Positions 3,238 through 12,494 of a stretch of DNA of 31,774 nucleotides are shown here, piece by piece. Within the stretch, counting starts at the first letter, position 1. Every line of letters starts with the position of its first letter. Source of the DNA: a virus (taxonomy: Duplodnaviria > Heunggongvirae > Uroviricota > Caudoviricetes); the IMG/VR virus record IMGVR_UViG_2579779052_000011. One strand, 5' to 3'. Under the pieces are notes generated by a model. That model saw only the letters and a program-made list of their open reading frames with translations, did no database searches and was not told the DNA's origin. The position numbers and the translations under genes were made by a program.

Positions 3238-3509
3238 GTATTCGTGTTGAAATTGGCGAACGTTATGTCGTTACCAGTGACAGCTTTCAGTTTATTCTCC
3301 ACGAGAAAAAGAGAGCGGAAAGCGGTAAAAACGCCGGTCAGGAATGGCTGGCGGTGGTTGGTTATTACCCGAAATTAGGCCAGCTCGTTTCCGGCCTGAT
3401 GCATCACGATATTCTGACCGGAAGCGCAAAATCTTTTGCTGATTTAAACGCGCAGGTTGAGCAACTCAGCAAGCGTTGTTCAGAGGCTTTTGGCTCATAT
3501 GGCCGTTAA
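3234..3509 (+). CDS. Hypothetical early protein (P2 orf83 position)
   Basis: 91-aa ORF; overlaps the start of A. Confidence 0.6.
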   Translation: MSIRVEIGERYVVTSDSFQFILHEKKRAESGKNAGQEWLAVVGYYPKLGQLVSGLMHHDILTGSAKSFADLNAQVEQLSKRCSEAFGSYGR

Positions 3510-5775
3510 AGCCTCCGGGCGTTTTGTCCCTCCGTCAGCATTTACCGCAGGCACCGGTAAGGCGTTTACCGGTGCTTATGCATGGAACGCGCCACGCGAG
3601 GCTGTCGGGCGCGAAAGACCTCTTACACGTGACGAGATGCGTCAGGTGCAAGGTGTTTTATCCACGATTAACCGCCTGCCTTACTTTTTGCGCTCGCTGT
3701 TTACTTCACGCTATGACTACATCCGGCGCAATAAAAGCCCGGTGCACGGGTTTTATTTCCTCACATCTACTTTTCAGCGTCGTTTATGGCCGCGCATTGA
3801 GCGTGTGAATCAGCGCCATGAAATGAACACCGACGCGTCGTTGCTGTTTCTGGCAGAGCGTGACCACTATGCGCGCCTGCCGGGAATGAATGACAAGGAG
3901 CTGAAAAAGTTTGCCGCCCGTATCTCATCGCAGCTTTTCATGATGTATGAGGAACTCTGCGATGCATGGGTTGATGCGCATGGTGAAAAAGAATCGCTGT
4001 TTACGGATGAGGCGCAGGCTCACCTGTATGGTCATGTTGCTGGCGCTGCACGTGCTTTCAATATTTCCCCGCTCTACTGGAAAAAATACCGTAAAGGACA
4101 GATGACCACGAGGCAGGCATATTCTGCCATTGCCCGCCTGTTTAACGATGAGTGGTGGACTCATCAGCTTAAAGGCCAGCGTATGCGCTGGCATGAGGCG
4201 TTACTGATAGCTGTCGGGGAGGTCAATAAAGACCGTTCTCCTTATGCCAGTAAACACGCCATTCGTGATGTGCGTGCGCGCCGCCAGGCAAATCTGGAAT
4301 TTCTTAAATCGTGTGACCTTGAAAACAGGGAAACCGGCGAGCGCATCGACCTTATCAGTAAGGTGATGGGCAGTATTTCTAATCCTGAAATTCGCCGGAT
4401 GGAGCTGATGAACACCATTGCCGGTATTGAGCGTTACGCCGCCGCAGAGGGTGATGTGGGGATGTTTATCACGCTGACCGCGCCGTCAAAGTATCACCCG
4501 ACACGTCAGGTCGGAAAAGGCGAAAGTAAAACCGTTCAGCTTAATCACGGCTGGAACGATGAGGCATTTAATCCAAAGGATGCGCAGCGTTATCTCTGCC
4601 GTATCTGGAGCCTGATGCGCACGGCATTCAAGGATAATGATTTACAGGTCTACGGTTTGCGAGTCGTCGAGCCACACCACGACGGAACGCCGCACTGGCA
4701 TATGATGCTTTTTTGTCATCCACGCCAGCGTAACCAGATTATCGAAATCATGCGTCGCTATGCGCTCAAAGAGGATGGCGACGAAAGAGGAGCCGCGCGA
4801 AACCGTTTTCAGGCAAAACACCTTAACCGGGGCGGTGCTGCGGGATATATCGCGAAATACATTTCAAAAAACATCGACGGCTATGCACTGGATGGTCAGC
4901 TCGATAACGACACCGGCAGGCCGCTGAAAGACACTGCAGCGGCTGTTACCGCATGGGCGTCAACGTGGCGCATTCCGCAATTTAAAACGGTTGGCCTGCC
5001 GACAATGGGGGCTTACCGTGAACTACGCAAATTGCCTCGCGGCGTCAGCATTGCTGATGAGTTTGACGAGCGCGTCGAGGCTGCACGCGCCGCCGCAGAC
5101 AGTGGTGATTTTGCGCTGTATATCAGCGCGCAGGGCGGGGCAAATGTCCCGCGCGATTGTCAGACTGTCAGGGTCGCCCGTAGTCTGTCGGATGACGTTA
5201 ACGAGTACGAGGAAGAAGTCGAGAGAGTGGTCGGCATTTACGCGCCGCATCTCGGCGCGCGTCATATTCATATCACCAGAACGACGGACTGGCGCATTGT
5301 GCCGAAAGTTCCGGTCGTTGAGCCTTTGACTTTAAAAAGCGGCATCGCCGCGCCTCGGAGTCCTGTCAATAACTGTGGAAAGCTCACCGGTGGTGATACT
5401 TCGTTACCGGCTCCCACACCTTCTGAGCACGCCGCAGCAGTGCTTAATCTGGTTGATGACGATGTTATCGAATGGAATGACCCGGAGGTCGTGAGGGCGC
5501 TCAGGGGCGCATTAAAACACGACCGGAGAACGCCAAACCGTCAGCAAAGAAACGGAAGCCCGTTAAAACCGCATGAAATTGCACCATCGGCCAGACTGAC
5601 CCGGTCGGAACGATTGCAAATTACCCGTATCCGCGTTGATCTCGCTCAGAACGGTATCAGGCCGCAACGATGGGAGCTTGAGGCGCTGGCGCGTGGCGCG
5701 ACCGTAAATTATGACGGGAAACCTTTCACTTATCAGGTCGCTGATGATTGGCCGGGGTTTTTGTTACCCATTTGA
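3499..5775 (+). CDS. A: Rolling-circle replication initiator/endonuclease, P2 gpA-like
   Basis: Large ORF; true start taken as the ATG at 3499 (MAVKASGRF...), which I recognise as the P2 A N-terminus; the listed ORF start at 3457 overlaps the upstream gene. Confidence 0.9.
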   Translation: MAVKASGRFVPPSAFTAGTGKAFTGAYAWNAPREAVGRERPLTRDEMRQVQGVLSTINRLPYFLRSLFTSRYDYIRRNKSPVHGFYFLTSTFQRRLWPRIERVNQRHEMNTDASLLFLAERDHYARLPGMNDKELKKFAARISSQLFMMYEELCDAWVDAHGEKESLFTDEAQAHLYGHVAGAARAFNISPLYWKKYRKGQMTTRQAYSAIARLFNDEWWTHQLKGQRMRWHEALLIAVGEVNKDRSPYASKHAIRDVRARRQANLEFLKSCDLENRETGERIDLISKVMGSISNPEIRRMELMNTIAGIERYAAAEGDVGMFITLTAPSKYHPTRQVGKGESKTVQLNHGWNDEAFNPKDAQRYLCRIWSLMRTAFKDNDLQVYGLRVVEPHHDGTPHWHMMLFCHPRQRNQIIEIMRRYALKEDGDERGAARNRFQAKHLNRGGAAGYIAKYISKNIDGYALDGQLDNDTGRPLKDTAAAVTAWASTWRIPQFKTVGLPTMGAYRELRKLPRGVSIADEFDERVEAARAAADSGDFALYISAQGGANVPRDCQTVRVARSLSDDVNEYEEEVERVVGIYAPHLGARHIHITRTTDWRIVPKVPVVEPLTLKSGIAAPRSPVNNCGKLTGGDTSLPAPTPSEHAAAVLNLVDDDVIEWNDPEVVRALRGALKHDRRTPNRQQRNGSPLKPHEIAPSARLTRSERLQITRIRVDLAQNGIRPQRWELEALARGATVNYDGKPFTYQVADDWPGFLLPI

Positions 5776-5960
5776 GTAAAAATACAGCGTGATTTTATAT
5801 GTCTTTGAATGGATTATGCGAAGCACCTCTAAGGTAGATGAGGAGCAATAGCGTGTTGAATCAGAAGGCTAAATTGTATTGAATCGTTAGCATGTAATTG
5901 AAGGCAGCTATTTGATTCGAGTCATAAAAGAGCATCTATTTCGGTTAATAAAACCATTGC

Positions 5961-6005
5961 GAGTGACTTTATGTCGAAGCATAATTCATCTCGAGCGAAG
6001 TCTTG
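5961..6005. repeat. Direct repeat copy 1 (GAGTGACT...GAGCGAAGTCTTGC)
   Basis: Shares the GAGTGACT start and the 14-bp GAGCGAAGTCTTGC end with 6246-6270, with about 20 extra bp in between. Confidence 0.6.
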
Positions 6006-6037
6006 CTAGTCTTTCATCGGATTGATGACGGGCGCAA

Positions 6038-6069
6038 AAAAACCACCCTGGCAGGTGGTTTTTTTGTTT
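6038..6069. terminator. Bidirectional rho-independent terminator after the early operon
   Basis: AAAAAAA-CCACCCTGGCAGGTGG-TTTTTTT: GC-rich hairpin flanked by an A-tract and a T-tract. Confidence 0.8.
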
Positions 6070-6077
6070 GAAGCATA

Positions 6078-6191
6078 CTAAAGAAAAATACTTACATGGA
6101 TATTACTGACGTTTACTGACAAACCACTCGGACTACCATATGGATAGCCAAAGAGGGCCAGAACGAGAATGCAGTAATAGCACTTCTTCAT
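6078..6191 (-). CDS. Small hydrophobic peptide (37 aa), function unknown
   Basis: ATG with a consensus GGAGG Shine-Dalgarno 5 nt upstream; hand-translated as MKKCYYCILVLALFGYPYGSPSGLSVNVSNIHVSIFL; ends just before the bidirectional terminator. Below the ORF-track size cutoff. Confidence 0.3.
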   Translation of the reverse strand: MKKCYYCILVLALFGYPYGSPSGLSVNVSNIHVSIFL

Positions 6192-6245
6192 ATCGCCTCC
6201 TGTAAGCAGAGGGCAATTTCCGCCGATATATGCGCTTCTAAGGCG

Positions 6246-6270
6246 GAGTGACTATTGAGCGAAGTCTTGC
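6246..6270. repeat. Direct repeat copy 2 (GAGTGACTATTGAGCGAAGTCTTGC)
   Basis: Shares the terminal 14-bp GAGCGAAGTCTTGC and the GAGTGACT start with 5961-6005. Confidence 0.6.
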
Positions 6271-6848
6271 CCTGAAATAATGCTCTGTTTAAACGCAAAG
6301 TGATCTGGCATATCACCGAACAGAGGACCTGAACAACACAACATATAGTATGTCGTTGTTTCTGGTTGCATTTTATGTTGTGTAATACTGGTTTTGCATC
6401 AAGGATGTTTGAGCTTTTTTTGATATAGCTCAAAGTAAAAAGCAGAGACTACGGATGATAAGGTCTTGAAAGCAATGTAAATTTTTTAAAGTTGTGAGTG
6501 GCTAGAAATGCACAGTTTCAATATGGCGGATTTAAACAAGTAATTAAAAATAGCGACATAAATTCCAATAAAATCATTAAGTTGCGTTTTCTGTGGAAAC
6601 TTCGGTGACTCTGAAATTTTCTTTTAGTGTCGCTGAGGTTTAACAACGCGCTGCGCAAGTAGTTAGTGTTTTTTTAACTCAATATTCTGATTTATAAGGT
6701 TTTTTATAAATCGTGGGCTGGTTGCGCGTATTCATCTCGTGTTATCAGCAAAGATAAGCTCTATATGCAGAACGGAATGCATATATGATGTCGAAAATGT
6801 TATGGGAAAACGTGGATTAGTGTTATAGTAATGGCTGAAAAACAGCCT

Positions 6849-6877
6849 TGACATAAAATAACAACTGTGATATGGCT
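6849..6877 (+). promoter_or_regulatory. Putative sigma70 promoter for the cargo peptidase gene
   Basis: TTGACA at 6849-6854, 17-bp spacer, TATGGC -10-like hexamer; TAGGAGG RBS at 6901-6907. Confidence 0.4.
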
Positions 6878-6912
6878 GTGCATACTTAACTTTTTTAACG
6901 TAGGAGGCAACC

Positions 6913-7398
6913 ATGAGCTATGCAGCTAAAAAACTGCTTGACCGCTATTGGGATCGCCGACTACCTGTCGATCCGTTTAAGCTTGCTAAAGCGTGGGGTG
7001 CTCGTGTTGAAGCACTTGAGGAATCGGCTTATAACAACGATGGGTTAAGCGGTCTGGCTGTCATCAAAAAGGGTGTCCATAGGATTTATTTTGATTCTAG
7101 TGAACATTCTAATCGTCAACGTTTTACTGTTGCACACGAGTTAGGTCATCATGTGCTGGGGCATACCCAGGACGGAGAGTACCATCGGGATAATGTCGGG
7201 AATTATTCAACAGGTGCTCGTGATTACCGTGAGGTTGAAGCAAACAAGTTTGCTGCTGAGTTGTTAATGCCTGAGTCTGCTATACGTCAATTGGTATCCA
7301 GAGAAGGTATTGATAGCACTTTGAGATTAGCAAGCATCTTTAATGTATCAGAAGCCGCTATGCATTGGCGCTTAAAGAGCTTAGGAATGGCTTATTAA
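6913..7398 (+). CDS. ImmA/IrrE-family (DUF955) zinc metallopeptidase
   Basis: 161-aa ORF with HEXXH (HELGHH) and the downstream family motif EANKFAAELLMPE; strong RBS; AT-rich. Confidence 0.8.
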   Translation: MSYAAKKLLDRYWDRRLPVDPFKLAKAWGARVEALEESAYNNDGLSGLAVIKKGVHRIYFDSSEHSNRQRFTVAHELGHHVLGHTQDGEYHRDNVGNYSTGARDYREVEANKFAAELLMPESAIRQLVSREGIDSTLRLASIFNVSEAAMHWRLKSLGMAY

Positions 7399-7426
7399 TT
7401 AGCCTTTAACTTTTAACCTGTTTAAA

Positions 7427-7465
7427 ATCACCTTTACGTTTGTACATGTAAGGGTGATTTTTTTA
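7427..7465 (+). terminator. Rho-independent terminator or attenuator after the peptidase gene
   Basis: 10-bp stem (AUCACCUUUA / UAAGGGUGAU, one G-U pair) followed by a run of 7 T; ends at the start codon of the next ORF. Confidence 0.6.
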
Positions 7466-8064
7466 TGGCTGATATTGATTTATCTGGACAGTCCCCAGAG
7501 CAAGGAACCACTCCTAAGGGCGATTTAGATCCTGATATCCTTATAAGGCGAGATAGACGGGATGGTATAGAGCGTAGAAGCATGCGATTAGTGCTCTCTG
7601 CCGTTGTGCTTTGTTTTGCTTGTACATTTCTATGGCAGGGGCTTAACTTTGCTTTGGCTGTTGGAAATGGCTTGCTGGAAGCGAAAAGCAGTATTGCCGC
7701 AGCGATAACACAAAAAGTAGATACACAAACTTGTGTTTCAGCAGAAAAATGTTCTGCTTTATCTTCGGATCCGAAGATGGCTGATGAGAGGATAACACCA
7801 TCTTCAGACACTAATAAAGTTAGAAAATCTATTTCTGGTTTATCCACCGATTGGTTATCGGCCAGTTCTCTAATAGCTATTGTTGCATTCATCCTTGGTG
7901 TGGGTTTAACTTTGCTTTTGACTCTTCTTAAATCAGCATTTCAACACCCGACAGATAAAGACTTTAGAACAAAGTCGACATCTAATACTATTGAGTTGGC
8001 CACGCCAATCAGTGAATTAATAATTGGTGTTCTGAATATAATTAAAGACAAACTATCTAAGTAA
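7465..8064 (+). CDS. Hypothetical membrane protein with two predicted TM helices
   Basis: 199-aa ORF; hydrophobic segments LVLSAVVLCFACTFLW and LIAIVAFILGVGLTLLLTLL; no recognisable RBS; followed by a terminator. Confidence 0.45.
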   Translation: MADIDLSGQSPEQGTTPKGDLDPDILIRRDRRDGIERRSMRLVLSAVVLCFACTFLWQGLNFALAVGNGLLEAKSSIAAAITQKVDTQTCVSAEKCSALSSDPKMADERITPSSDTNKVRKSISGLSTDWLSASSLIAIVAFILGVGLTLLLTLLKSAFQHPTDKDFRTKSTSNTIELATPISELIIGVLNIIKDKLSK

Positions 8065-8106
8065 AGCATTAGTTGTGATTTTTTATTGGTTTTAGTGATA
8101 ATACAT

Positions 8107-8139
8107 CTCCAGTACTTATTGTTACTGGAGAGTATTTTT
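8107..8139 (+). terminator. Rho-independent terminator between convergent cargo genes
   Basis: Perfect 8-bp stem CTCCAGTA...TACTGGAG followed by AGTATTTTTA. Confidence 0.6.
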
Positions 8140-8146
8140 AGTCGTT

Positions 8147-9088
8147 TTATATTTTTAATGTTAGTGAATGATATTCACGAGAGTTCACGTTCGATGTGAT
8201 GTAATCGGGGGCGTTAACACCAAGAATCGCAACGAGTAATCGGCAAATTAAAGCCTGCATTTGTTGTAATATGTCATCTCCATATTGATAATTGTTAATA
8301 GTGGTAAAGCCAAGTGGTTGACCATGAAACATAGCTTCATGAAAGTTTTCATTGCGGATGTTTGTAATGTTTTTTTTGCCTGTAACCCATGATGGTCGTG
8401 GTATTCCATAAGTTTTGCAGATCCACTTCAAGCGCCTGGAGTGATTTAGAGTCTTTTCTGTACACTTGTTCTTTTCTGCCCATGTTAAAGCAAAGCAACT
8501 ATCCAGTGCCATATAAAGATACTGGAATTTTTCGAAGCTAAGGTATTGTGGGTTTTGGGATAAAAATAGTGCATGCACTATTGCTGCTATATTTATTGGT
8601 GCGTGTTTGGTTTTTGTCTCGCTAGACATGTATTTGAGTGCTAATTCTATAACCTCTTTTTCAGAGCACTTGACCAGAATAAAGTCAGTTAATTTGCTAG
8701 GTTTTATTGGGGTTGCGTCTAAAAAACCGGCATCAGTAGTTGTTAATCTTATCCCTTTGAAAAAAGACAGACACCACACAGCAAAATTGAGAGTTTCTAG
8801 TGAAGATGTATTTTTTAATTTTAGTGAGTGTGTTTTGGGTAAGCCAAATACTCGTTGGCTAAAAGGCATTGTGGATATGCCTCCATTGAGGTTATATACT
8901 TCTTGGTTTCCTGGGTATATCCAACCGTTAATAACATTTCTGTGATTGTTTATAAGATTTGTTTTTTCCGCTAGACCGGGTAAAGTAAGTAAAGAAAAAT
9001 CATCAGTTTCAACGTTAACTTCTACTGGATAGTATCCAAACTCAGCTTCAATATCATTGGATTGCTGTTCGTCAACTTTACCTTGCAT
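8147..9088 (-). CDS. Hypothetical 313-aa protein in the old/tin hotspot; possible HEPN-like Rx4H motif; candidate defence effector
   Basis: AT-rich ORF with GGAG RBS 8 nt upstream; occupies the cos-proximal slot where P2 has old; C-terminal IRNENFHEAMFHG motif. Confidence 0.6.
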   Translation of the reverse strand: MQGKVDEQQSNDIEAEFGYYPVEVNVETDDFSLLTLPGLAEKTNLINNHRNVINGWIYPGNQEVYNLNGGISTMPFSQRVFGLPKTHSLKLKNTSSLETLNFAVWCLSFFKGIRLTTTDAGFLDATPIKPSKLTDFILVKCSEKEVIELALKYMSSETKTKHAPINIAAIVHALFLSQNPQYLSFEKFQYLYMALDSCFALTWAEKNKCTEKTLNHSRRLKWICKTYGIPRPSWVTGKKNITNIRNENFHEAMFHGQPLGFTTINNYQYGDDILQQMQALICRLLVAILGVNAPDYITSNVNSREYHSLTLKI

Positions 9089-9200
9089 ACATTGCTCCGG
9101 TCAAAAATAGGCTCGATAATTCTCGTAAGCCTATCATGTTCGCAAAGTATCCATACCTGTGGATTTTGTAAATTTAAGTTGATTTGTCATTAAATAAGCC

Positions 9201-9212
9201 GTTGCATGCAAC
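9201..9212. repeat. Perfect 12-bp palindrome GTTGCATGCAAC upstream of the 313-aa gene
   Basis: Direct reading; lies in the promoter region of the minus-strand cargo gene. Confidence 0.5.
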
Positions 9213-9326
9213 AAGTGAATGTTTTTGCATGCGTCGGGGATGTCCGTTCAGGCTGCGTGCGGTCAGGACTGGTGCGGATCCATAGTATCTATGCAACTGC
9301 ATTAAAACTGCCCCATGAAGCGGGCG

Positions 9327-9345
9327 GGCGAGGCGGGGAAAGCAC
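9327..9345. other. cos: cos site (19-nt cohesive end GGCGAGGCGGGGAAAGCAC)
   Basis: Exact match to the P2 cohesive-end sequence as I recall it; located immediately upstream of Q as in P2. Confidence 0.8.
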
Positions 9346-9488
9346 TGCGCGCTGGCGGTGGTGCTGATTTTATTTTTTCAGCGTCTGAGCGCGTCTTGAT
9401 GGCGTTTAGATTGTGCGCCGGGGCGTTGGTGTGTCTGCGGGGTATTTTGTGCGGTGGTGAGCGTGTGAGGGCGTGATGACGGGGTGTA

Positions 9489-9512
9489 AAAAAGCCGCCC
9501 GCAGGCGGCGAT
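9489..9512 (-). terminator. Terminator downstream of Q (minus strand)
   Basis: GCCGCC-CGCA-GGCGGC hairpin followed by a T6 run on the minus strand, just past the Q stop. Confidence 0.6.
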
Positions 9513-9514
9513 GT

Positions 9515-10549
9515 TCAGCCGTTGTCAGTGTCCAGTGAGTAGTTTTTAAAGCGGATGACCTCCTGGCCGAGCCAGCCGTTTATTTCCCGAATCCTGTCCT
9601 GTAACGGGATAAGTTCATTGCGGACAAAGACCTTTGCCACTTTCTCAATATCACCCAGCGACCCGACGTTCTCCGGCTTGCCGCCCATCAACTGAAAGGG
9701 GATGCGGTGCGCGTCCAGCAGGTCAGCGGCGCTGGCTTTTTTGATATTAAAAAAATCGTCCTTCGTTGCCACTTCACTGAGCGGGATAATTTTAATACCG
9801 TCGGCTTTCCCCTGCGGGGCATAGAGAAACAGATTTTTAAAGTTGTTGCGGCCTTTCGACTTGACCATGTTTTCGCGAAGCATTTCGATATCGTTGCGAT
9901 CCTGCACGGCATCAGTGACGTACATGATGTATCCGGCATGTGCGCCATTTTCGTAATACTTGCGGCGGAACAGCGTGGCCGACTCATTCAGCCAGGCAGA
10001 GTTAAGGGCGCTGAGATATTCCGGCAGGCCGTACAGCTCCTGATTAATATCCGGCTCCAGCAGGTGAAACACGGAGCCGGGCGCGAAGGCTGTCGGCTCG
10101 TTGAAGGACGGCGCCCACCAGTAAACATCCTCTTCCACACCACGGCGGGGATATTTTGCCGGTGAGGTTTCCAGTCTGATGACCTTACCGGTGGTGCTGT
10201 AACGCTTTTCCAGAAACGCATTACCGAACACCAGAAAATCCAGCACAAAGCGGCTGAAATCCTGCTGGGAAAGCCACGGATGCGGGATAAATGTTGAGGC
10301 CAGAATATTACGTTTGACGTAAATCGGTGAGCTGTGATGCACGGCAGCACGCAGGCTTTTTGCCAGACCGGTAAAGCTGACCGGTGGTTCATACCATCTG
10401 CCGTTACTGATGCACTCGACGTAATCCAGAATGTCACGGCGGTCGAGTACCGGTACCGGCTCGCCAAAGGTGAATGCCTCCATTTTCGGGGTGCTGGCGG
10501 TCATTTTTTTTGCCGCAGGTTGCGGTGTTTTCCCTTTTTTCTTGCTCAT
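9515..10549 (-). CDS. Q: Portal protein, P2 gpQ-like
   Basis: 344-aa ORF, same length as P2 Q; N-terminal lysine-rich region; adjacent to cos. Confidence 0.9.
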   Translation of the reverse strand: MSKKKGKTPQPAAKKMTASTPKMEAFTFGEPVPVLDRRDILDYVECISNGRWYEPPVSFTGLAKSLRAAVHHSSPIYVKRNILASTFIPHPWLSQQDFSRFVLDFLVFGNAFLEKRYSTTGKVIRLETSPAKYPRRGVEEDVYWWAPSFNEPTAFAPGSVFHLLEPDINQELYGLPEYLSALNSAWLNESATLFRRKYYENGAHAGYIMYVTDAVQDRNDIEMLRENMVKSKGRNNFKNLFLYAPQGKADGIKIIPLSEVATKDDFFNIKKASAADLLDAHRIPFQLMGGKPENVGSLGDIEKVAKVFVRNELIPLQDRIREINGWLGQEVIRFKNYSLDTDNG

Positions 10550-12321
10550 CAGTAAAACTCCAGAATGGTGGATGTCAGCGGAGTGCTGATACCCGCGGTG
10601 AGTGGCTCATTTAACAGGGCGTGCATGGTCGCCCAGGCGAGGTCGGCGTGGCTGGCTTCCTCGCTGCGGCTGGCCTCATAGGTGGCGCTGCGTCCGCTGC
10701 TGGTCATGGTCTTGCGGATAGCCATAAACGAGCTGGTGATGTCGGTGGCGCTGACGTCATATTCCAGACAGCCACGGCGAATAACGTCTTTTGCCTTGAG
10801 CACCATTGCGGTTTTCATTTCCGGCGTGTAGCGGATATCGCGCGCGGCGGGATAGAACGAGCGAACGAGCTGGAACACGCCGACACCGAGGCCGGTGGCA
10901 TCAATTCCGATGTATTCGACGTTGTATTTTTCGGTGAGTTTGCGGATGGATTCAGCCTGGGTGGCAAAGTCCATGCCTTTCCACTGGTGACGCTCAAGTA
11001 TTCTGAATTTGCCACCGGCCACCACCGGCGGTGCCAGCACCACGCATCCGGCACTGTCGCCACGGTGTGACGGGTCGTAACCAATCCAGACCGGGCGGGA
11101 GCCGAACGGATTGGCGGCAAACGGCGCATAGTCTTCCCATTCTTCCAGCGTGTCGACCATGCAGCGTTGCAGCTCCTCGAACGGGAATACCGACGCCTTG
11201 TCGTCAACAAATTCACACATGAACAGGTTTTTAAAATCGTCGGCGCTGTTTTCGCGTTTAAGCTGCTCAATGTCGAACAGCGTGCAGCCACCTTTCAGGG
11301 CGTCCTCAATGGTGACAATCTGCCGCCACTGGCCGTCCGCACAGAGAAACCCACCGGCAAGGGCGTTATGACTGACGTCGATTTCCACGCGTTCGGCGGC
11401 GCTGGCGCGTCCCCGGTTGAACAGTTCACCCGACCAGAACGGGTAGGCGTCGTGCGCCAGCGTGGACGGGGTGGAGAAATAGGTCGAGCGCAGGTGACTC
11501 TGTGAGGCCATACCTGATGCCACCTTACGCAGTACCTGAAAATTCGGGATCCAGAAAATCTCGTCGACGTACAGGTCGCCGTTATGGCTCTGTGCGGTGT
11601 TGGAGTTGGTGCCGAGAAAAATCAGTTTTGCGCCGTTATTGCCCAGGACAATCGGGTCACCGGTCAGGTCAACGTCAACCAGACGGGCAAAGGCGATGAT
11701 GTATTCGCGGAACACATACGCCTGCGTTTTACTGGCCGACAGAAAAATCTGGTTATGACCGGTTTTCAGGGCGCGCAGCAGCGCCTCGCGGGAAAAATAA
11801 AACGTCGCGCCAATCTGGCGGGATTTCAGGATATCGCGGATGCGGTGCTCAAGCCCGGCGCGATACCAGTGCAACTGATATTCGAAAGACTGCTCAAAGA
11901 AAATCTGCTCCAGCTTTTCGATGGCCTCGTCGCTGAAAAAATTCTTTTTCGGTTTGCGTCGCCCGCCTTTGTTGCGGTTAGCGACGTTCGGATTAAGGTC
12001 TGCCTCGTTGCCGGTCTGACTGTAGCGGTTTACCCGTGCCAGTCGTTCAATCTGGCGTCCCAGCAGGTCAATTTCCTTGAAGTCACCGCCGGTTTTCTGC
12101 GGTTTGATGATGAGCTGGGTCAGTCGCGCTTCCAGACTCATTTCGACACGGCTGATGGGGGCAACGCTGTCCCAGCCGTCGCGCTGTTTCCAGCTCTGCA
12201 CCGTCGGACGTTTCATCTGCAACATGGCGGCAATCTGCGGCACGGAAAACCCCTGCCAGTACAGCAGCGCCGCCTGACGACGCGGGTCGTGTAAAAGAGT
12301 GGTGTCTGTGGTGATGGTCAT
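10549..12321 (-). CDS. P: Terminase large (ATPase) subunit, P2 gpP-like
   Basis: Start taken at the internal ATG at 12321 (MTITTD..., GAGG RBS), giving 590 aa; stop overlaps the Q start. Confidence 0.9.
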   Translation of the reverse strand: MTITTDTTLLHDPRRQAALLYWQGFSVPQIAAMLQMKRPTVQSWKQRDGWDSVAPISRVEMSLEARLTQLIIKPQKTGGDFKEIDLLGRQIERLARVNRYSQTGNEADLNPNVANRNKGGRRKPKKNFFSDEAIEKLEQIFFEQSFEYQLHWYRAGLEHRIRDILKSRQIGATFYFSREALLRALKTGHNQIFLSASKTQAYVFREYIIAFARLVDVDLTGDPIVLGNNGAKLIFLGTNSNTAQSHNGDLYVDEIFWIPNFQVLRKVASGMASQSHLRSTYFSTPSTLAHDAYPFWSGELFNRGRASAAERVEIDVSHNALAGGFLCADGQWRQIVTIEDALKGGCTLFDIEQLKRENSADDFKNLFMCEFVDDKASVFPFEELQRCMVDTLEEWEDYAPFAANPFGSRPVWIGYDPSHRGDSAGCVVLAPPVVAGGKFRILERHQWKGMDFATQAESIRKLTEKYNVEYIGIDATGLGVGVFQLVRSFYPAARDIRYTPEMKTAMVLKAKDVIRRGCLEYDVSATDITSSFMAIRKTMTSSGRSATYEASRSEEASHADLAWATMHALLNEPLTAGISTPLTSTILEFY

Positions 12322-12494
12322 GAATACCTCGCCGTGATGAATACACGGCAAGGCTACTGAGTCGCGCCCCGCGATTCGCTAAGGTGCTGTTGTGTCAGTG
12401 ATAAGCCATCCGGGACTGATGGCGGAGGATGCGCATCGTCGGGAAACTGATGCCGACATGTGACTCCTCTAATCACTATTCAGGACTCCTGACA
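12322..12494. promoter_or_regulatory. Divergent late promoter region between P and O (Ogr-dependent in P2)
   Basis: Intergenic region between divergently transcribed P and O; no motif confirmed. Confidence 0.5.

Follow-up and report, generated by a model that had tools for sequence, protein, structure and literature searches.

The closest described relatives of the locus reported here are systems built around a zinc peptidase of the M78 (ImmA/IrrE) type. RosmerTA (NetFlax node D25) joins a Zn-peptidase antitoxin to a toxin of unknown function (Millman 2022). Antitoxins of the ImmA-protease node have many different toxins as partners, with either gene first, and often, though not always, carry a helix-turn-helix (HTH) domain; one partner, from Gordonia phage Kita, is membrane-anchored, depolarises the membrane and defends against phages (Ernits 2023). 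In CapH-CapP (Lau 2022; Calloji 2026, PMC13228613) the peptidase CapP has an interdomain groove for single-stranded DNA (ssDNA) and a cysteine-switch loop, and in ImmA/ImmR of ICEBs1 and IrrE/DdrO of Deinococcus the M78 protease cleaves an adjacent XRE-family repressor. Here we analyse a two-gene locus in IMG/VR virus record IMGVR_UViG_2579779052_000011 (Caudoviricetes), a stretch of 31,774 nucleotides (nt), called the window below, that is a P2-like (Peduovirus) prophage. A stand-alone M78 peptidase gene is followed, across a conserved RNA hairpin, by the gene for a membrane protein with two transmembrane (TM) helices. The pair appears in Table S5 of Rousset 2022 (PMC9122126) as 'Peptidase_M78', P2 system #21, where its count is 148 and the remark reads '2 TM in protein 2'; we found no test of it in the literature. 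A prophage toxin-antitoxin pair reported in Rousset 2020/2021 (E101_02645/02644) was considered as a match and rejected, its protein accessions being different. The features of the module, including its Shine-Dalgarno (SD) sequences and open reading frames (ORFs), are as follows.

6848-6876, plus strand: putative sigma-70 promoter, read from the sequence
6902-6907, plus strand: AGGAGG, SD of the peptidase gene, 5 nt before its ATG
6913-7398, plus strand: stand-alone M78 (ImmA/IrrE-type) zinc metallopeptidase, 161 aa
7424-7461, plus strand: conserved RNA hairpin (5' arm 7424-7439, loop 7440-7445, 3' arm 7446-7461)
7452-7458, plus strand: SD-like GGGTGAT, masked inside the 3' arm
7458-7464, plus strand: T7 run abutting the start codon, which would be both terminator U-tract and SD-AUG spacer
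7465-8064, plus strand: gene for a 199-aa two-helix inner-membrane protein, ATG start, from the ORF list
7585-7662, plus strand: TM1, about residues 41-66 (Kyte-Doolittle)
7855-7929, plus strand: TM2, about residues 131-155 (Kyte-Doolittle), containing AFILGVGLTLxLTLLK
7434-7892, minus strand: antisense ORF of 152 aa, not a gene, with no Pfam or PADLOC match
8106-8139, both strands: two-way terminator-like hairpin with T-run at the module end (9-bp stem, found by scan; fold z = -3.3)

The upstream M78 peptidase is the key to the identity of the locus. It matches Pfam PF06114 (E = 3.8e-21), the PADLOC capP profile (1.1e-30), the CapP structure 7t5t in the PDB (7.6e-7) and 16 PADLOC RmrA profiles (best 6.1e-17), the last through the C-terminal halves of the profiles. 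PGAP names it 'ImmA/IrrE family metallo-endopeptidase'. Residues H75-E76-x-x-H79, H84 and E107 were invariant in 28 homologues. The protein has no HTH, no second domain and no cysteine.

RosmerTA offers the nearest functional parallel. Both consist of an ImmA/M78 peptidase and a small protein without a known domain, both reside in phages and defence islands, and the M78/ImmA Zn-peptidase domain is present here by PF06114, the RmrA profiles and the invariant HExxH. Gene order is variable in Rosmer systems. The N-terminal Xre-type HTH is missing, the match covering only about positions 146-290 of RmrA profiles that are 357-400 positions long, and the partner belongs to no known RmrT family: searches of the membrane protein against PADLOC (E <= 0.1), Pfam and NCBIfam gave no match, and only PHROG 8096, of unknown function, was hit (1.3e-124). 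As the bare 161-aa peptidase lacks the Xre HTH, it cannot autoregulate by DNA binding, which sets it apart from RosmerTA, as does the conserved intergenic RNA hairpin, for which we found no description in Rosmer systems. By analogy the pair would fit the RosmerTA pattern in function while departing from it in two features of membership, the missing HTH and the membrane protein that no PADLOC model recognises.

In profile and PDB searches alike the peptidase matches CapP best, and the two share the M78 fold and an association with phage defence. By its sequence, however, the pair is not CapP/CapH. Neither strand of 5776-9514 has an ORF that encodes an HTH (ORF list and Pfam), so there is no adjacent CapH; the peptidase has 161 aa against 291 aa for the 7t5t chain, of which only the protease domain is matched, and it has neither the interdomain groove nor a cysteine. 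The downstream gene encodes a single membrane protein rather than a repressor-controlled immune operon. With ImmA/ImmR and IrrE/DdrO the locus shares a small stand-alone M78 protease with HExxH on a mobile element, ImmA being of similar size, but here the sole conserved neighbour is the membrane protein. No XRE/CI-type repressor gene neighbours the peptidase gene in the island; only the P. aeruginosa relative adjoins an S24 CI-like repressor.

In every locus examined, as obtained via viral, metagenome and exact-protein look-ups, an M78 peptidase gene (~161 aa) lies directly upstream of the membrane-protein gene. Members were found in Escherichia, Salmonella, Serratia, Enterobacter, Klebsiella-type, Aeromonas, Vibrio, Acinetobacter and Pseudomonas hosts. 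Their settings include P2-like prophages with gpA proteins 30-99% identical, Vibrio integrative elements flanked by serine recombinases, Acinetobacter prophage-like elements, a CP4-57-like island in which the pair lies beside CbtA/CbeA (locus L035), an Enterobacter plasmid where the pair adjoins a zeta toxin, and a Serratia island near a canonical HTH-M78 pair. Peptidase homologues at 45-51% identity led to the members in Klebsiella-type prophages and the Aeromonas Mu-like prophage, and by the same route to a short 135-aa form in P. aeruginosa prophages. The identities of peptidase and membrane protein change in step (82-90/55-63%, 63/44%, 46/~24% and 42/28%, respectively). Since the pair is the sole cargo between gpA and gpQ in L002, L010 and L025, the unit is two genes, and the distribution points to a self-contained cassette of this pair that moves horizontally. 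Among one-genome-per-species reference contigs, neither alignment-derived patterns nor a back-translated AFILGVGLTL pattern gave a match. The module is, on these sequence searches, rare, mobile and absent from reference genomes.

Two of the settings are unusual in themselves. In the Serratia island (L004/L005, 7463-9246) a 223-aa ORF is followed by a 371-aa HTH_3-Peptidase_M78 protein, a canonical Rosmer-like arrangement 1.8 kb downstream of the HTH-less pair, so that two peptidase-based modules reside in one island. In the Aeromonas Mu-like prophage (L042/L043, 3001-4810) the pair has the Mor regulator on one side and a GH108 endolysin gene on the other, a position where a holin might be expected.

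A first, sequence-only reading of the window had described the 199-aa ORF as a two-helix membrane protein gene but also allowed that it was mis-called, given an overlapping minus-strand ORF. The mis-call is refuted by comparison, which indicates a real gene. In 18 of 18 distinct DNA variants the plus frame can be read without interruption from the ATG behind the U-run to the stop codon (199-259 aa), and the many indels in the N-terminal tail do not close it. Substitutions between the window and L023 number 118, 65 and 43 at codon positions 3, 1 and 2, with a similar pattern in other variants, and 53 homologues were found in a collection of 5.8 billion proteins. Only 56 cluster representatives were present among 1.84 billion proteins, which makes the family a small one. 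PGAP holds the protein as WP_001598737.1, a hypothetical protein. The minus-strand ORF does exist, as the reading had said, but across the same 18 variants, all of which keep the plus ORF open, the longest stretch without an antisense stop is anywhere between 71 and 203 aa, and the comparison indicates that it is not a gene.

The two hydrophobic helices were confirmed as Kyte-Doolittle segments (19-residue window) at residues ~41-66 and ~131-155. In an AlphaFold model built on 44 sequences, residues 23-88 and 116-159 form long helices, residues 89-115 are a disordered loop and residues 182-198 make up an amphipathic helix at the C-terminus; the mean predicted local distance difference test (pLDDT) score is 65.8. 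From the N-terminus, the protein comprises a cytoplasmic tail that bears a D-L-S-G motif, then TM1, a periplasmic loop that varies, TM2 and the C-terminal amphipathic helix. The TM2 sequence AFILGVGLTLxLTLLK is invariant from E. coli through Vibrio and Acinetobacter, and its Gly-x-Gly helix suggests oligomerisation into a pore. The N-terminal motif, in the general form D-[LFY]-[SA]-[GAEDQ], and the C-terminal helix are widely recurrent among homologues; a conserved motif on a variable linker makes the tail an obvious candidate for a peptidase recognition site. A Foldseek search of the model, which is a plain helical hairpin, against the PDB returned only coiled-coil noise (E > 3).

The membrane protein appears to evolve much faster than its partner. 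In P2-type loci compared with window positions 6913-8064 (L002, L010, L017-L019, L026 and L027), it is 55-63% identical against 82-90% for the peptidase, with change concentrated in the N-terminal linker and the periplasmic loop. Diversifying selection or recombination could account for this divergence.

Annotations of this gene family differ in the start codon, placing it at Met1, at Met40 or at an ATG within the stem (window 7446-7467 and 7582), with discordant calls for proteins P0006, P0009, P0012, P0016, P0018 and P0021. Met40 was chosen in several database entries and in Table S5 of Rousset 2022, where protein 2 begins at that residue. The start that yields 'M(M)VIFFM...' is the ATG in the hairpin 3' arm and is used when the length of the T-run keeps the frame. 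Our comparison places the start codon at the ATG following the U-run.

Two candidate starts ahead of a two-helix protein raise the prospect of dual-start control of the holin/antiholin kind, in which the hairpin would steer ribosomes between Met1 (a long, inhibitory form) and Met40 (a short, lethal form), with the sdi stem-loop of lambda S107/S105 as the model. We give this little credence. The N-in/C-in two-helix topology, from Kyte-Doolittle and AlphaFold, resembles that of class II holins, as does the charged cytoplasmic C-terminus; like sdi, the stem-loop lies at the ribosome-binding site of a membrane protein, lethal in lambda and putatively so here. A Met directly before TM1 is present in most lineages and often picked by gene callers, and the Aeromonas Mu-like pair lies immediately upstream of the endolysin gene. 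The SD strength before the internal Met is inconsistent, however, ranging from -0.8 to -12.2 kcal/mol; Vibrio and Acinetobacter members have no internal Met; and the N-terminal tail that the short form would discard is coding-constrained and carries the conserved motif. The protein also far exceeds holins in size, its periplasmic loop having ~65 residues, and resembles them in neither sequence nor fold. Its gene sits in the cargo island and matches no lysis family, while the P2 lysis cassette of the window would be elsewhere (ORFs at ~16.0-17.7 kb, judged by position only); the Aeromonas locus is the only one with an endolysin gene next to the pair.

The hairpin between the two genes has 16 pairs and a 6-nt loop, with a folding energy of -18.4 kcal/mol alone and -25.1 kcal/mol in its 86-nt context (z = -5.4 to -5.5; none of 200 shuffles was as stable). 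As first noted from the sequence, a stable hairpin and a T7 run stand directly before the ATG; the run occupies 7458-7464 and the ATG begins at 7465. The accompanying statement that the gene has no SD proved wrong. GGGTGAT (7452-7458) forms a duplex of -10.2 kcal/mol with the 3' tail of 16S rRNA and is sequestered in the stem, its GGTGA ending 7 nt before the membrane-gene ATG. The duplex energy equals that of the peptidase AGGAGG (-10.2 kcal/mol), and only ~7% of 22-mers in the island reach -8 kcal/mol. The 5' arm, AAAAUCACC, mimics and effectively copies the 16S 3' tail. A simple terminator scan of the window did not detect the hairpin, in our view because an upstream A-run pairs with the first four Ts and leaves too few.

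The same arrangement was found across the family. All Enterobacterales loci have AAAUCACC...GGUGAUUUUUU(U)AUG with free loops of 4-11 nt. In 11 distinct sequences from this group, 13 pairs were 98.6% paired, against 31-71% when the partners were slid, and three pairs show two-sided changes (U-G to A-U, U-A to C-G and C-G to U-A). These compensatory changes are modest evidence by themselves, being few independent events. The other lineages carry hairpins of unrelated sequence at the same place: AAGCCCUCA...UGAGGGCUUUUUA-AUG in Vibrio, AAAGCCACC...GGUGGCUUUUUUU-AUG in Klebsiella-type loci and AAAGCCACCU...AGGUGGCUUUUUUU-AUG in Aeromonas, with z-scores of -2.8 to -3.9. The layout of hairpin, U-run and AUG therefore recurs in four unrelated sequence forms, and unrelated stems at one position argue more strongly for a selected hairpin than the compensatory pairs do. 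The stable stem followed by a U-run that characterises an intrinsic terminator is present in the window and in the Vibrio, Klebsiella-type and Aeromonas forms, the run being T6-T8 in other Enterobacterales, T5 in Vibrio and T6-T7 in the Klebsiella-type and Aeromonas forms. Across lineages the 3' arm contains an SD-like core (GGUGA, GGUGG, AGGUGG or GAGG), for which the U-run is the spacer to the AUG.

These comparisons bear on what the inverted repeat is. A palindrome serving as a DNA operator was considered and rejected, the loop varying in length and sequence and the stems of other lineages being unrelated. We find it hardly credible that the inverted repeat is the operator of a dimeric regulator or, in a second version of the same doubt about the module, that the minus-strand ORF at 7434-7892 is the real product. 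The arms do form a DNA palindrome and the antisense ORF does exist, but a loop of 4-11 nt with free sequence is unlike a fixed-spacing operator and the island has no HTH gene; on the antisense side, the open stretch is not conserved and the substitutions fit the plus frame.

It is also quite improbable, in our judgement, that the two genes are functionally unlinked, the membrane protein being a harmless superinfection-exclusion or envelope protein and the hairpin no more than the normal terminator of a peptidase gene that is transcribed on its own. Small membrane proteins that keep DNA from entering the cell are frequent in prophages, and the hairpin does resemble a standard intrinsic terminator. 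Gene adjacency and order are nevertheless held from ~24% to 99% protein identity, across six genera and several kinds of mobile element; the interval between hairpin and ATG is too small for a promoter; and the ATG abuts the U-run in four unrelated forms, which would be unexpected for an unrelated downstream gene.

The signals in front of the peptidase gene differ sharply from those in front of the membrane gene. The putative promoter consists of TTGACA (6848-6853), a 17-nt spacer, TG (6868-6869) and TATGGC (6871-6876), and is of the extended -10 type; TTGACA-N17-TA(A/T)GGC preceded by TGn is conserved in seven P2-type loci. A consensus promoter scan did not report this element because its -10 hexamer matches only 3/6 positions. 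Downstream of it, GTAGGAGGC is kept in all Enterobacterales loci, even with unrelated upstream DNA. The peptidase gene has AGGAGG, a strong SD, whereas the SD core of the membrane gene lies inside a hairpin of -12 to -18 kcal/mol with a U-run. This asymmetry makes it very improbable that toxicity lies with the peptidase and that the membrane protein serves as its antidote or anchor: a strong promoter and SD on the peptidase, with the presumed antidote throttled, is the reverse of what a toxin and its antidote need. The idea draws on the Xre-peptidase of PD-lambda-2, which is toxic alone, and on source labels, 'toxin' for the homologue P0083 and 'CapP toxin' in the title of PDB 7t5t.

The hairpin is best read as a fixed expression damper that would combine a terminator with an SD mask. 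Each role has a precedent. In intercistronic partial terminators such as that of rpsU-dnaG-rpoD, a stem and U-run within an operon lowers the dose of the distal gene, and in the fold-backs of type I toxin mRNAs the SD is paired with an anti-SD-like sequence, which blocks initiation. What differs here is that both roles appear fused in one hairpin whose U-run doubles as SD-AUG spacer, and that the layout is rebuilt with unrelated sequences in four lineages of one module; we found no description in the literature of such a hairpin for a peptidase/membrane-protein pair.

The sequence-only reading had proposed an attenuator that gates a potentially toxic membrane effector. The part of that proposal concerning limited expression gains support from the comparison across four forms. 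The regulated gate does not: duplexes between the 150 nt upstream and the 5' arm, as a competing antiterminator would form, were no better than shuffled in six lineages, and for want of an antiterminator we replaced 'regulated attenuator' by 'fixed damper'. Its general premise, that membrane effectors gated by read-through are common in abortive infection, found no backing in the literature. A variant in which infection itself opens the hairpin as an RNA gate, releasing a holin-like pore while the M78 peptidase acts on the D-L-S-G tail, strikes us as unlikely. The gate would open through phage-induced RNA processing, through loading of S1 or ribosomes on the U-run, or through transcription starting inside the 5' arm. 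For the last of these, -10-like hexamers (TAAAAT, TAGAAT, TAGCAT) were read from the sequence in or just before the hairpin, with -35 matches of only 2-3/6; a promoter there was rejected on that ground and is retained solely within the gate proposal. Were that proposal true, this would be the first M78/ImmA-type peptidase with a membrane protein as substrate instead of a repressor.

For the module as a whole we favour, at about an even chance, a RosmerTA-like toxin-antitoxin or abortive-infection cassette in which the peptidase neutralises and the membrane protein kills. The peptidase would be efficiently translated and in excess. The stem and U-run would stop most transcripts after the peptidase gene, and in those that read through, the membrane-gene SD would be locked in the 3' arm of the hairpin, leaving the membrane protein scarce relative to the peptidase. 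The peptidase would hold that protein in check, the most likely target of its action being the cytoplasmic N-terminal tail. With the arrival of a phage the balance would be upset, and the membrane protein would then depolarise the cell. Toxicity and abortive infection are suggested here by context.

A pro-toxin activated by proteolysis is possible though rather unlikely. Here an infection-sensing M78 peptidase would cut the tail at or near D-L-S-G and free the pore, with the hairpin setting the stoichiometry. ImmA, IrrE and CapP are signal-activated, site-specific proteases, with ssDNA stimulating CapP and IrrE, and the short N-terminal motif followed by a variable, low-complexity linker resembles a recognition or cleavage site; many members also have an internal Met just before TM1. 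The 161-aa peptidase, however, lacks the second domain, interdomain ssDNA groove and cysteine switch of the signal-responsive CapP, and an inert full-length protein would leave the double lock on expression hard to explain. We prefer neutralisation by the peptidase because a low dose of membrane protein suits a toxin-antidote pair.

Several observations weigh against the toxin-antitoxin reading. The direction of peptidase action could be either, to neutralise or to activate, and in PD-lambda-2 the Xre-peptidase is itself the toxic component. Neither protein sequence is in the table of tested systems (S2) of Rousset 2022. The peptidase is without the HTH that RmrA normally has, and no PADLOC model fits the membrane protein; confidence in its AlphaFold structure is modest (the pLDDT of 65.8), with no Foldseek match in the PDB. 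The damper, too, varies. L059 retains the stem and its SD-like core but has an interrupted U-run (TTATT), from which SD masking may be the more constrained of its two roles. The Acinetobacter and Pseudomonas members have no hairpin, their intergenic gaps being 30 and 13 nt, so the damper is not essential to the module.

The position of the pair within the prophage is defined by three further features.

3457-5775: replication protein gpA (Pfam Phage_GPA, 2.8e-124)
9515-10549, minus strand: portal (Pfam search)
10549-12351, minus strand: 600-aa ORF beside the portal, in the terminase position (by position only)

The pair sits inside the interval between gpA and the portal gene, a low-GC island (~33-45% GC against 50-60% in the flanks), which Rousset 2022 (PMC9122126) describes as the variable cargo hotspot (A-Q) of P2-like prophages. 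Prophages in 46 complete E. coli genomes match the whole island at 99.7% identity, as does Salmonella phage MET_P1_103_31; the pair was found in 47 of 5426 complete E. coli genomes (~0.9%). In one E. coli copy (NZ_CP182145.1, 2278-7354) an ISVsa5 (IS4-like) element is inserted within the island. Among module-bearing P2-type loci, shared DNA starts only ~125 nt upstream of the peptidase ATG. A search of the whole window against Rfam gave zero family matches.

The rest of the island contains two further candidates. The ~1 kb from the gpA stop to the module (5776-6790) has no ORF longer than 81 aa and no Rfam match. Within it, a hydrophobic ORF of 37 aa (MKKCYYCILVLALFGYPYG...) lies at 6078-6191 on the minus strand. 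An AGGAGG stands 5 nt ahead of its start codon, and its stop is followed by a two-way terminator-like hairpin (~6040-6070). It is annotated as hypothetical in OQ383618, its DNA is common only to three phage records with the E. coli form of the island, and its product may be either a small membrane peptide or a type I-like toxin. On the other side of the module, a 313-aa ORF (8147-9088, minus strand) is convergent with the membrane gene and shares the two-way terminator-like hairpin at 8106-8131 with it. Its product belongs to a family of more than 600 gammaproteobacterial proteins, one homologue of which is called 'Apea-like HEPN domain-containing protein' by one source, and R245-N246-x3-H250-E251 (RNENFHE, the HEPN Rx4H motif) was invariant in 17 sequences. 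Neither Pfam nor PADLOC gave a match to this protein. The ORF is probably an independent single-gene HEPN RNase defence candidate; a role as third component of the module was ruled out, the gene being missing from most loci that bear the pair.

The P2-like A-Q hotspot is a proven reservoir of anti-phage systems, and the pair described here is catalogued there. Its unusual traits are a bare M78 peptidase with a membrane-protein partner and a convergently maintained terminator/anti-SD hairpin. If our favoured reading is true, the RosmerTA principle would extend to peptidases without a DNA-binding domain, and an ImmA-type protease would have a membrane protein as its direct substrate or partner. 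With terminator, anti-SD mask and SD-AUG spacer in one stem and U-run, the hairpin is a compact and reusable design that evolution appears to have rebuilt at least four times, from different sequences, to throttle a probably lethal gene. The module is thus a directly testable lead.

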